This document shows, one piece after another, positions 6,690 to 9,128 of a stretch of 17,995 nt of DNA. The notes under the pieces were generated by a model. The model saw only the letters and a list, made by a program, of their open reading frames with translations. It ran no database searches and was not told the DNA's origin. This DNA comes from Escherichia coli (GTDB lineage Bacteria > Pseudomonadota > Gammaproteobacteria > Enterobacterales > Enterobacteriaceae): NCBI RefSeq assembly GCF_003334335.1, contig NZ_QOWQ01000057.1. One strand, 5' to 3'. A program made the position numbers and the translations under genes. Position 1 is the first letter of the stretch. Each line of letters starts with the position of its first letter.

Positions 6690-9128
6690 ATGGCTATCAA
6701 AAAAACCGAACTCTATTCTTCCCTGTGGGCAAGCTGCGACGAACTGCGTGGCGGGATGGACGCCAGCCAGTACAAAGACTATGTACTGACCCTGCTGTTT
6801 ATGAAGTACGTTTCCGATAAGTATAAAGGCGATCCTTACGGGATGATCGTGATACCCAAAGGAGCCAGCTTTGACGATATGGTTGCGCTGAAAAATGACA
6901 AAGAGATCGGCGACAAAATCAACAAAATCATCCACAAGCTGGCGGAAGAGAACGGCCTGAAGGGCGTCATCGACGAAGCCGACTTTAACGACGAAGATAA
7001 GCTCGGCAAAGGCAAGGAAATGATTGACCGCCTGAGCAAGCTTGTCGGTATCTTTGAAGGGTTAAATCTCTCCAGCAACCGGGCCGAAGGCGACGATCTG
7101 CTGGGCGATGCCTATGAATATCTGATGCGTCACTTCGCAACCGAATCCGGTAAGAGTAAAGGGCAGTTTTACACTCCAGCGGAGGTGTCACGTATTCTGG
7201 CGAAGGTGATTGGTATTACTCCCGATACTCCGCAAGATGCAACGGTTTATGACCCAACCTGTGGCTCTGGTTCGCTGCTGTTGAAAGTGAATGATGAAGC
7301 CCGGCGCGGACTGTCGATTTTCGGCCAGGAGATGGATAACGCTACCAGTGCGCTGGCGCGGATGAACATGATTCTGCATAACAATGCCACCGCGAAAATC
7401 TGGCAGGGCAATACGCTGAGCGATCCGCAGTGGAAAGAGGCGAACGGCAAACTGAAAGCCTTCGATTTTGCCGTGGCGAACCCGCCTTTTTCCAATAAAA
7501 ACTGGACCAACGGGCTGACGCCGAAAAAAGATCCGTTTGAACGCTTCGGCTGGGGTATTCCGCCGGAAAAAAACGGCGATTATGCTTTTTTGTTGCATAT
7601 CATTAAAAGCCTGAAAAGTACCGGCAAAGGCGCGGTGATCCTGCCCCACGGCGTACTGTTTCGCGGTAACGCCGAAGCGAATATCCGTGAAAATCTAATC
7701 AAGCAGGGCTATATCAAAGGCGTTATTGGTTTGCCAGCCAACCTGTTTTACGGCACCGGCATCCCGGCGTGCATCATTGTGATTGATAAAGAGCACGCCC
7801 ACAGCCGCAAAGGCATTTTTATGATCGACGCCAGCCGGGGCTTTATCAAAGATGGCAACAAGAACCGCCTGCGTAGCCGAGATATTCACCGCATTGTGGA
7901 CGTGTTCAACCATCAGCGAACGGTACCTGGCTACAGCCGGATGGTGCCCTCCAGCGAGATCGCCGGAAATGATTACAACCTGAATATTCCTCGCTATATC
8001 GAGAGCGGCGAGCCGGAAGATTTACACGATCTGACCGCGCACTTACAGGGCGGTATTCCGGCACGCGATGTGGATGCTTTGCAAGATTACTGGCGGGTAT
8101 TCCCTGCCCTGCGCAACGTGCTGTTTGCTGACGACCGTCCCGGTTACTGTCGGGCGCAGGTGAACGCGCAACAGGTGAAACCGACCATTCTGGCGCATCA
8201 GGAGTTTAAGGATTTTGCCACCCGCAGCCTGCTACCGTTTAAAGCGTGGGTGAAAGAGGCAAGTCTGGAAGAGATTCGCAAAGGTGATAAACCCAAAGCG
8301 CTAATCCACGATATCAGCGAAATGCTATTGGCGCAGTACGCCAACAGTGAGTTGCTGAACAAATACAGCGTGTACCAGATCCTGATGGATTACTGGACTG
8401 ATGTCATGCAAGACGATGTGTATGCGATTATGCAGGATGGCTGGCAAGCCGCCGCGCAAATCCGCGAGCTTCAGCCGGTGAAAGGCAAAGATGGCAAAAA
8501 CATCTGGAAAGAAACGCACGATTTCGAGTTTACCAAACGGCGCTACAAGGCCGATGTGCTGCCCCGTTCGCTGGTGGAAATTCGCTGTTTCCCGGAACTG
8601 CTGGATGCGCTGAACCGCGCGCAGGAGCGCAGTGAAGAAGCCAGTCGTCAGCTAGTGGAATTCATCGAGGAGCAGGCAGGTGAAGAGGATCTGCTGGCCG
8701 AGGCGAAGAACGATAAAGATAAGGTGACGCAAAAGCTGGTGAATGCCCGTCTAGCACAGTTAAAGAAAACCACTGCCGGCCCAGATGAGCTGGCAGTGCT
8801 GAACCGCTGCCTGGCGCTAATTAAGGCCGAAGCCAGTGCGAAAAAAGCGCTGAAAGCCGCACAAGAAGCGCTGGATCGGGCGGTGTTTAAACATTATCCC
8901 ACGCTGGATGAAGCAGCGATTAAAACGCTGGTAGTGCAGGATAAGTGGCTGGCAACGTTGCAGGCAGGGATCAAGGCGGAGATTGAGCGTATTACCCAGC
9001 AACTGGCGTCGCGCGTAAAGGAGCTGGAAGAGCGTTATGCTGAACCGTTGCTAGCGCTTGAAGCCTCCGTTGAGGCGTTGAGCGAGAAAGTGGCCGAGCA
9101 TTTGCGGGCGATGGGGCTGGAGTGGTGA
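6690..9128 (+). CDS. hsdM: Type I restriction-modification N6-adenine DNA methyltransferase subunit HsdM (long form, 812 aa)
   Basis: HsdM N-terminal domain MAIKKTELYSSLWASCDELRGGMDASQYKDYVLTLLFMKYVSDKY; AdoMet-binding DPTCGSGSLL; catalytic VANPPFS; conserved DYNLNIPRYI. About 380 further residues follow, rich in E/K/A/L (coiled-coil-like). Stop TGA 9126-9128 overlaps the hsdS ATG. Confidence 0.92.
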   Translation: MAIKKTELYSSLWASCDELRGGMDASQYKDYVLTLLFMKYVSDKYKGDPYGMIVIPKGASFDDMVALKNDKEIGDKINKIIHKLAEENGLKGVIDEADFNDEDKLGKGKEMIDRLSKLVGIFEGLNLSSNRAEGDDLLGDAYEYLMRHFATESGKSKGQFYTPAEVSRILAKVIGITPDTPQDATVYDPTCGSGSLLLKVNDEARRGLSIFGQEMDNATSALARMNMILHNNATAKIWQGNTLSDPQWKEANGKLKAFDFAVANPPFSNKNWTNGLTPKKDPFERFGWGIPPEKNGDYAFLLHIIKSLKSTGKGAVILPHGVLFRGNAEANIRENLIKQGYIKGVIGLPANLFYGTGIPACIIVIDKEHAHSRKGIFMIDASRGFIKDGNKNRLRSRDIHRIVDVFNHQRTVPGYSRMVPSSEIAGNDYNLNIPRYIESGEPEDLHDLTAHLQGGIPARDVDALQDYWRVFPALRNVLFADDRPGYCRAQVNAQQVKPTILAHQEFKDFATRSLLPFKAWVKEASLEEIRKGDKPKALIHDISEMLLAQYANSELLNKYSVYQILMDYWTDVMQDDVYAIMQDGWQAAAQIRELQPVKGKDGKNIWKETHDFEFTKRRYKADVLPRSLVEIRCFPELLDALNRAQERSEEASRQLVEFIEEQAGEEDLLAEAKNDKDKVTQKLVNARLAQLKKTTAGPDELAVLNRCLALIKAEASAKKALKAAQEALDRAVFKHYPTLDEAAIKTLVVQDKWLATLQAGIKAEIERITQQLASRVKELEERYAEPLLALEASVEALSEKVAEHLRAMGLEW

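Follow-up and report, generated by a model that had tools for sequence, protein, structure and literature searches.

In the PacII system, the C-terminal tails of the short HsdM subunits form a four-helix bundle with the conserved regions CR1 and CR2 of HsdS, and deletion of these tails abolishes M2S assembly (PMC9613975). Some type I restriction-modification (R-M) loci also host embedded genes. PrrC is embedded in the type IC locus EcoprrI and is controlled by the type I enzyme (PMC12707154). The VPI-2 type I system of Vibrio cholerae (VC1765-69) has the order hsdM-hsdS-[two DUF262 genes]-hsdR (bioRxiv 10.1101/2024.04.04.588119 / J Bacteriol 2024) and, with its embedded TgvAB, is active both in plasmid restriction and in the methylation of a normal bipartite site (bioRxiv 10.1101/2024.04.04.588119). 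In strain E2348/69 of enteropathogenic Escherichia coli (EPEC), the RptR-RMS-DarTG2-M48 (RRDM) island confers phage protection, with RptR acting as its repressor at TAGCTA repeats (Zhang et al., Nucleic Acids Res 2025, PMC12255303). Here, we analyze a stretch of 17,995 nucleotides of E. coli (NCBI RefSeq assembly GCF_003334335.1, contig NZ_QOWQ01000057.1), called the window below, and more specifically its hsdM gene (6690-9128, plus strand), whose 812-amino acid (aa) product continues far beyond the methyltransferase core. We consider it probable, at about 0.6, that this protein is a long-form M subunit carrying an architectural insertion in front of its HsdS anchor, an organization standard for its family.

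Positions 6690-9128 encode a genuine type I M subunit from a single intact gene. The open reading frame (ORF) runs uninterrupted from ATG to TGA over 2,439 nt and its stop codon overlaps the hsdS start codon by one nucleotide (TGATG at 9126-9130), as in EcoKI, for which a passage of PMC3510504 gives a one-base hsdM/hsdS overlap. Pfam recognizes HsdM_N at residues 10-121 (E 2e-16) and N6_Mtase at residues 135-441 (E 2e-103). Together these domains delimit a methyltransferase core at 6717-8012 (plus strand), in whose translation the S-adenosylmethionine (SAM)-binding motif DPTCGSG and the catalytic motif NPPF can be read. The motif NDYNLNIPRYI occupies residues 427-437. An earlier description of this DNA made from its letters alone, the sequence-only reading, had correctly placed a single 812-aa HsdM at these coordinates and had located the end of the core near DYNLNIPRYI, around residue 430, in good agreement with the domain limits. 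The protein scores 282.8 bits against TIGR00497, the NCBIfam hsdM equivalog (cut-off 242.75), and is named 'type I restriction-modification system subunit M' in RefSeq (WP_000985465.1). Both partners, HsdS and HsdR, are encoded with it, hsdR lying downstream in the same orientation. In a sequence search of PDB chains, the closest solved relatives of the core are Vibrio vulnificus 3lkd, PacII M1/M2 (7vru) and the type IC EcoR124 (7bst), with E-values of ~1e-64 (EcoR124) to 1e-78, whereas the type IA EcoKI (2ar0) is far more distant (1e-21); all four have the same N-terminal and catalytic domains as the present HsdM. The HsdR of the window matches TIGR00348 and not the EcoAI model of NCBIfam. 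Residues 1-441 would be expected to ensure the usual SAM binding and N6-adenine methylation within an M2S1 or R2M2S1 complex.

Relatives of the gene were collected from 66 loci of species-representative GTDB genomes, 55 of them with an intact hsdM, a sample biased towards the relatives of the query. A few have the tail as a separate or truncated ORF (e.g. L021, L040 and L042, as well as AlphaFold Database (AFDB) entries of 341-395 aa), as would be expected if the long ORF resulted from a sequencing frameshift or from hsdM having recently become fused to a gene of its own standing downstream. This explanation is opposed by the continuity of the ORF, by an end-to-end match to a full-length profile, by the 55 intact fused relatives distributed across phyla and by the recurrence of this 2,439-nt gene, unchanged, in many complete genomes that are independent of one another: of 5,426 complete E. 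coli genomes, 249 have the allele in full length, always annotated as subunit M. Moreover, the split loci that were checked are degraded, L011 and L062 having broken hsdS, darG and hsdR genes as well and L072 having an hsdR reduced to 93 aa. These grounds exclude a frameshift artefact, and a recent fusion has a negligible probability; the undetected frameshift between two genes that the sequence-only reading had envisaged was not found. Considered in its own right, the splitting of hsdM into two or more ORFs is seen in several of the species-representative genomes (L011, L021, L040, L042, L062 and L072).

The protein has the same HsdS and HsdR partners as classical HsdMs, which measure 499-544 aa. 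It is ~290 residues longer than EcoKI (529 aa) and EcoR124 (520 aa), and the contrast drawn in the sequence-only reading with subunits of 520-540 aa was justified. Within its own family this length is not unusual, since 812 aa is the norm of a large and already catalogued group. Residues 1-812 align to positions 1-810 of the 810 of the PADLOC profile MTase_I PDLC03027 with 1426 bits, which makes the protein a member of the long family, and two further long PADLOC profiles, PDLC03022 and PDLC03031 (857 and 834 positions), align through the end of the tail. Of the representative protein clusters, 2,295 matched the tail alone at E<=0.001; at E<=1e-10 and E<=1e-30 the numbers were 1,230 and 241. 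In full-length matches the tail starts at about residue 440-456, and in most matches it ends at the C-terminus of the protein. A structure search of AFDB50 with the tail yielded 233 clusters at E<=0.001; the best 50 of these are all annotated as adenine DNA methyltransferase or type I M subunit except for two unnamed proteins. Among the AFDB50 matches listed, nearly all carry an adenine DNA methyltransferase annotation and measure about 800-1040 aa; they come from Proteobacteria, Actinobacteria, Firmicutes, Cyanobacteria, Spirochaetes and Bacteroidota, with hosts including Rhodobacter, Streptomyces, Leptospira, Finegoldia and Campylobacter. The length distribution that the sequence-only reading had proposed to establish was drawn from the representative-cluster search and the GTDB loci, a word-indexed search having given mostly metagenomic fragments; the 55 intact relatives center on a median of 817 aa (interquartile range 812-829). 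The qualification 'unusually long' must consequently be dropped. The same reading had foreseen that the long form might turn out to be common in a type I family without any link to embedded genes: common it is, but the co-occurrence with embedded genes exists at the family level, as described below.

Residues 442-812, ~370 residues past N6_Mtase and close to the ~380 estimated by the sequence-only reading, gave no significant match in Pfam and none in NCBIfam. The tail alone found no relative among PDB sequences, its sole return being a chance match to NOP5 (E 0.32), and the classical HsdM chains of the PDB align to the protein just to about residue 450. Compared with the core, the tail is richer in alanine (13.4 vs 7.3 %), glutamate (9.9 vs 5.2 %) and leucine (12.4 vs 8.4 %), a bias concentrated in residues 626-812. 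Lysine, which the sequence-only reading had added to these three, is not enriched (8.1 vs 8.6 %). AlphaFold2 modeled the whole HsdM, from an alignment of 110 sequences, with a predicted local distance difference test (pLDDT) of 91.4 and a predicted template modeling score (pTM) of 0.88, and the tail alone with a pLDDT of 96.1 and a pTM of 0.87. The tail can be regarded as a conserved module that is confidently predicted to fold on its own. Four parts were distinguished. Part A (aa 442-625; 8013-8564, plus strand, as for the following parts) is predicted to fold into a compact set of helices and then a short beta element, and its alignment columns include the invariant residues H451, Y559 and D576 and the motif YQILMDYWTDVMQDDVY. 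Part B (aa 626-697; 8565-8780), predicted to consist of helices and a loop, varies more than any other stretch of the tail, having the lowest column conservation (0.60) and a divergence poorly correlated with that of the core (Spearman 0.38). In the AlphaFold2 model there follows an antiparallel two-helix hairpin (aa 698-738 and 741-783, ~42 residues each; 8781-9038). The C-terminal segment (aa 784-812; 9039-9125), modeled as a helix at 787-807, is a candidate HsdS-anchoring tail based on this model and on hhalign. A heptad score of our own, crude and useful as a pointer only, peaks at residues 741-785. The description of the tail as 'coiled-coil-like' holds for its helical, A/E/L-rich second half and for the antiparallel hairpin; the predicted fold is a compact one and not a long dimeric coiled coil. 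PDB fold searches with the tail retrieved generic helical hairpins and nothing more specific. Literature searches found no paper in the library covered that discusses a long HsdM tail, and a term search of the RRDM paper (PMC12255303) turned up no passage on it.

Some relatives are longer still. Three proteins of 1014-1037 aa (P0133, P0168 and P0179) and the AFDB entries A0A8B6M436, A0A1I0UCB8 and A0A059KRR4 extend ~220 residues beyond the tail. P0133 matches Methylase_S weakly in this extra C-terminal part (E 0.009, residues 954-1004), a sign that its tailed M subunit may be fused to half an HsdS. In another group, comprising L045 (939 aa), L059 (928 aa), L063 (973 aa) and P0129 (913 aa), ~100-150 apparent extra residues lie inside the tail, the tail match spanning 1,407-1,566 nt vs 1,116 nt here; P0129 has no Pfam match past residue 442.

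Long and short subunits were compared at their C-termini. The aligned short forms end with NIPRYVDTFEEEDEIDL, one helix and YLKELGY, i.e. with ~44 residues after NIPRY including this single C-terminal helix. The long form reads NIPRYIESGEPEDLHDL, then about 340 residues, then VAEHLRAMGLEW, so that the ~340 residues lie between an acidic linker and the last helix. When a profile of 111 short-form C-termini was compared with the protein by hhalign, its best placement was at residues 789-811, end to end (P = 0.0012, probability 19 %). Co-variation was assessed by partial Mantel tests over 41 loci with core divergence controlled and 2000 permutations. The last helix co-varies with the conserved regions of HsdS (r = 0.53, a value reached in 0 of 2000 permutations, p<=0.0005). 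Its co-variation with the neighbouring hairpin is lower (0.11), and there is none with HsdR (-0.20). For part A, the test against the same HsdS regions gave r = 0.32, again reached by 0 of 2000 permutations, as opposed to 0.07 for the hairpin, which does not co-vary with them. No part of the tail co-varies with HsdR.

The hhalign placement and the co-variation of the last helix with HsdS lead us to read the apparent extension as an insertion before the usual HsdS anchor. Rather than an add-on, the tail would be an insertion of ~340 residues, with the acidic linker downstream of NIPRY on one side and the last helix on the other. The latter would correspond to the C-terminal tail of short HsdMs, packing on two HsdS helices in the four-helix bundle of M2S. 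The inserted part, made of the helical domain, the variable region and the 42-residue hairpin, would be a rigid architectural element of the enzyme complex and would not be an adaptor made for DarTG, for M48 or for any other particular embedded gene. We infer both that the last helix anchors HsdS and that the insertion serves architecture alone; the most likely function of the tail appears to be structural, ending in an HsdS anchor.

Several observations weigh against this interpretation. The hhalign placement is weak (19 %) and its runner-up, at residues 640-663, is nearly equal (P = 0.0021); when short-form C-termini were compared with the tail by BLAST-short, no match reached clear significance (best E 0.069). 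The pairs compared in Mantel tests are not independent and were drawn from loci biased towards the relatives of the query, and the co-variation between the last helix and HsdS could stem from shared recombination blocks, hsdS being adjacent, and not from contact. The invariant polar residues H451 and D576 of part A might mark a functional site. Finally, the tail is the fastest-evolving part of the system outside specificity, outpacing the core, HsdR and, in most loci, M48; a purely architectural role does not obviously explain such a divergence.

This rapid divergence can be considered from another angle. Across 58 related loci from several phyla, the core is 69-95 % identical to the query. 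Outside the enterobacterial clade carrying DarTG, most loci show identities of 54-61 % for the tail where the core reaches 84-88 %, HsdR 71-79 % and M48 57-75 %; in L016, for example, the tail is 60 % identical vs 88 % for the core, 79 % for HsdR and 75 % for M48. Loci with 97 % identical cores can have tails that are 68 % identical, which suggests a mosaic history, and part B diverges almost independently of the core. These figures are what one would anticipate if the variable middle of the tail (626-783) were an arms-race surface facing phage anti-restriction proteins as a target, a decoy or a sensor, but a less constrained helical surface predicts equally fast divergence and we hold this explanation to be rather improbable. 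It is similarly a long shot that this middle region might report the state of the enzyme, such as its inhibition by an anti-restriction protein, to an embedded effector or to the M48 peptidase; if true, a state-reporting tail of this kind would give the M subunit a guard mechanism of its own, general in scope and resembling that of PrrC. Overall, an interaction or arms-race surface represents a minority possibility.

The predicted architecture also invites comparison with the RM subunit of the type IIB enzyme BsaXI, which displays a conceptually similar helical 'knob' and antiparallel 'paddle' (PMC11997821). By analogy, the helical domain and the hairpin would contact DNA or position the nuclease or motor subunit, thereby tuning restriction and not assembly. 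The succession of a helical domain and a 42+43-residue antiparallel hairpin is in keeping with this idea, and the pTM of the whole-protein model (0.88) suggests that tail and core are fixed relative to each other. Against this idea, the tail carries a net negative charge and the hairpin one close to zero (+1), values that do not point to DNA binding, and no part of the tail co-varies with HsdR. The enzyme types differ, the BsaXI knob sits within the methyltransferase fold and not after it, and no fold match to knob or paddle was detected in the PDB searches with the tail. A BsaXI-like function therefore seems unlikely to us, and we retain the architectural insertion as the preferred reading.

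The sequence-only reading had proposed that the tail could be a scaffold for other products of the operon, including DarTG or the DUF45 (M48) protein. Related loci share the order hsdM-hsdS-[0-7 kb]-hsdR-M48. Extra same-strand DNA between hsdM/hsdS and hsdR amounts to at least 1.3 kb in 34 of 46 loci and to 0.3-1.3 kb in six, while six have none, and the M48 gene abuts hsdR in 38 of 40. The co-occurrence of long HsdMs with embedded genes that the sequence-only reading had suggested checking is thus found at the family level, with at least 0.3 kb of extra DNA in 40 of 46 loci. Such an organization, the precedent of an embedded effector under type I control (PrrC with EcoprrI, reviewed in PMC12707154) and the fast evolution of the tail, as an interaction surface might show, would all suit a docking scaffold holding DarT/DarG, other embedded products or M48 in the way EcoprrI holds PrrC latent. 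The distribution of the tail points elsewhere. The six cargo-free loci keep it in full, which indicates that the tail does not need cargo. The cargo itself consists of many unrelated systems: DarTG, DUF262/GmrSD-like pairs, a TrlF ATPase with its partner, Gabija GajA/GajB, Fic, a NucS-like nuclease and the PADLOC candidates PDC-S02 and PDC-M16A. Tails are 91 % identical between two loci with different cargo (TrlF in L013, a DUF262 pair in L015) and 68 % identical between two loci that both carry TrlF (L004 and L013); those of DarTG loci from other lineages are 49-58 % identical to the tail of the window. As judged from these comparisons, tail similarity tracks lineage and not cargo type. The divergence of the whole tail does not co-vary with that of M48 once the core is controlled for (0.07, whole-tail residuals only), nor with that of HsdR.

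Operons with short HsdMs provide a further control. Klebsiella pneumoniae plasmid pKP6701 encodes a 507-aa HsdM without the tail, HsdS, an embedded YecA-family gene and an M48 gene, and M48 matches akin to the latter occur on 355 Klebsiella plasmids. Acetobacter pasteurianus pAPA01-020 encodes a 508-aa HsdM without the tail, HsdS, HsdR and an M48 gene. Both follow the order hsdM-hsdS-(cargo)-hsdR-M48; their HsdM cores are 38-41 % and their distant M48/SprT homologues 31-33 % identical to the proteins of the present operon. Since these short-HsdM operons carry M48 and one of them an embedded gene, neither cargo nor M48 needs the tail. In addition, EcoprrI, which embeds PrrC, is a type IC system, and EcoR124 of that family has a 520-aa HsdM. 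A scaffold specific for DarTG is rejected because cargo-free loci keep the tail and tail similarity follows lineage, and a necessary, M48-specific partnership is rejected in view of the short-HsdM operons. The tail may still have a generic docking role, although we assign the scaffold hypothesis as a whole a low probability. The overall interpretation given by the sequence-only reading is therefore retained for the length relative to classical HsdMs, the helical nature of the tail and the co-occurrence at the family level; its claims of an unusual length and of a scaffold for DarTG or M48 specifically are not supported.

The spacing of the operon varies among relatives in additional ways. A gap of 0.5-2.3 kb separates hsdM from hsdS in L022, L033, L037, L042, L050, L054, L056-L058, L060, L063 and L069, and ORFs occur in some of these gaps, for instance one for a PDC-S02 candidate in L022 and one for Fic in L054; the translational coupling of hsdM and hsdS seen in the window is consequently not universal. 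An ORF of 158-191 aa, absent from the window, lies directly upstream of darT in L009 (6618-7193), L010 (3896-4471), L025 (12482-13057) and L068 (16128-16604). The L025 copy is distantly DarT-like, with a toxin_DarT match (E 1.8e-16) below cut-off.

As a finding this is ordinary. Both the type I R-M enzyme and its island were known beforehand, databases already contain the gene, the island and the long architecture, and there is experimental work on the island. What deserves attention is a module of ~370 residues, confidently folded according to prediction and present in more than 1,000 protein clusters across bacterial phyla, for which neither a Pfam family nor a solved structure exists. Its setting is the type I family in which embedded defence genes are most frequent. 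If the model of an insertion before the anchor is right, the M subunit of type I enzymes can accommodate a large module with the M2S core preserved, and this model would guide truncation and structural work on RRDM- and VPI-2-type systems.

From its gene content and promoter, the locus is the published RRDM island. It presents the order rptR-hsdM-hsdS-darT-darG-hsdR-M48, i.e. the seven-gene order of EPEC E2348/69, and TAGCTA repeats overlapping the -10 box (PMC12255303). The island promoter with its RptR operator repeats (6346-6387, plus strand, as for all genes of the operon) consists of a -35 element TTGAAC followed by TAGCTAATT, TAGCTAACT and a degenerate TATCTA, and has the same elements, TTGAAC and TAGCTA repeats, as in E2348/69. 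The RRDM paper describes three RptR-binding repeats (PMC12255303); two perfect TAGCTA palindromes are present here, at 6364 and 6373, the third repeat being the degenerate one. The first gene, rptR (6411-6650), encodes a small HTH-like repressor, annotated 'HTH-like domain-containing protein' in an identical RefSeq locus; RptR homologues are found upstream of hsdM in 15 of 51 related genes. The accessions of DarG (WP_000634203.1) and M48 (WP_001122107.1) are identical in the RRDM paper and in the window, whereas that of HsdM is WP_000985463.1 in the paper and WP_000985465.1 here, the two sequences not having been compared.

Downstream of hsdM, the specificity subunit gene hsdS (9128-10462) is identified by PADLOC (Specificity_I PDLC03098, 437 bits) and RefSeq. 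HsdS is variable among strains, with 70-76 % identity in two other E. coli loci compared. The DarTG2 toxin gene darT (10475-11131) and antitoxin gene darG (11128-12195) score above the NCBIfam cut-offs of toxin_DarT (262.6 bits) and antitoxin_DarG (451.1 bits). The darTG pair occurs in 249 of 5,426 complete E. coli genomes, a number equal to that of the hsdM allele but counted separately, the overlap of the two sets of genomes not having been checked. The restriction/translocase subunit gene hsdR (12214-15309, 1031 aa) matches TIGR00348 with 546 bits and PADLOC REase_I PDLC03044 with 1636 bits. It is abutted by the M48 or YgjP-like (DUF45) metallopeptidase gene (15309-16025), 'M48 family metallopeptidase' in RefSeq, whose V. 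cholerae counterpart is YgjP-like in Pfam. HsdR and M48 co-vary strongly with each other when core divergence is removed (partial Spearman 0.70), and neither does so with the HsdM tail; their co-variation fits a functional or recombinational HsdR-M48 unit. The VPI-2 system of V. cholerae is built in the same style, its cargo being TgvAB where that of the window is DarTG. A V. cholerae contig encodes a tail-containing HsdM (56 % tail identity), a GmrSD_N (TgvAB-like) pair, a 1030-aa HsdR and a YgjP-like gene; this contig is not confirmed as VPI-2 of the pandemic lineage, nor is the long form of VC1769 itself.

The operon is flanked by a gene for an Ag43-type adhesin, a GTPase gene and IS66-type ORFs. 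Upstream of the island, a 314-aa ORF on the minus strand (4468-5412), annotated as hypothetical, has a marginal match to GIY-YIG nucleases (E 0.017) and none in PADLOC or NCBIfam. Its slot is strain-variable in E. coli, being occupied by a ParA-family gene and two hypotheticals in one strain and by other hypotheticals in another. In L004 (2067-6830), L005 (677-5449) and L073 (5033-9805), located on IncC, IncY and another plasmid, three consecutive genes and a small gene lie directly upstream of the operon. Two or all of the three are annotated as integrase/recombinase, which suggests that the type I cassette of these plasmids is the cargo of a recombinase-driven mobile element.

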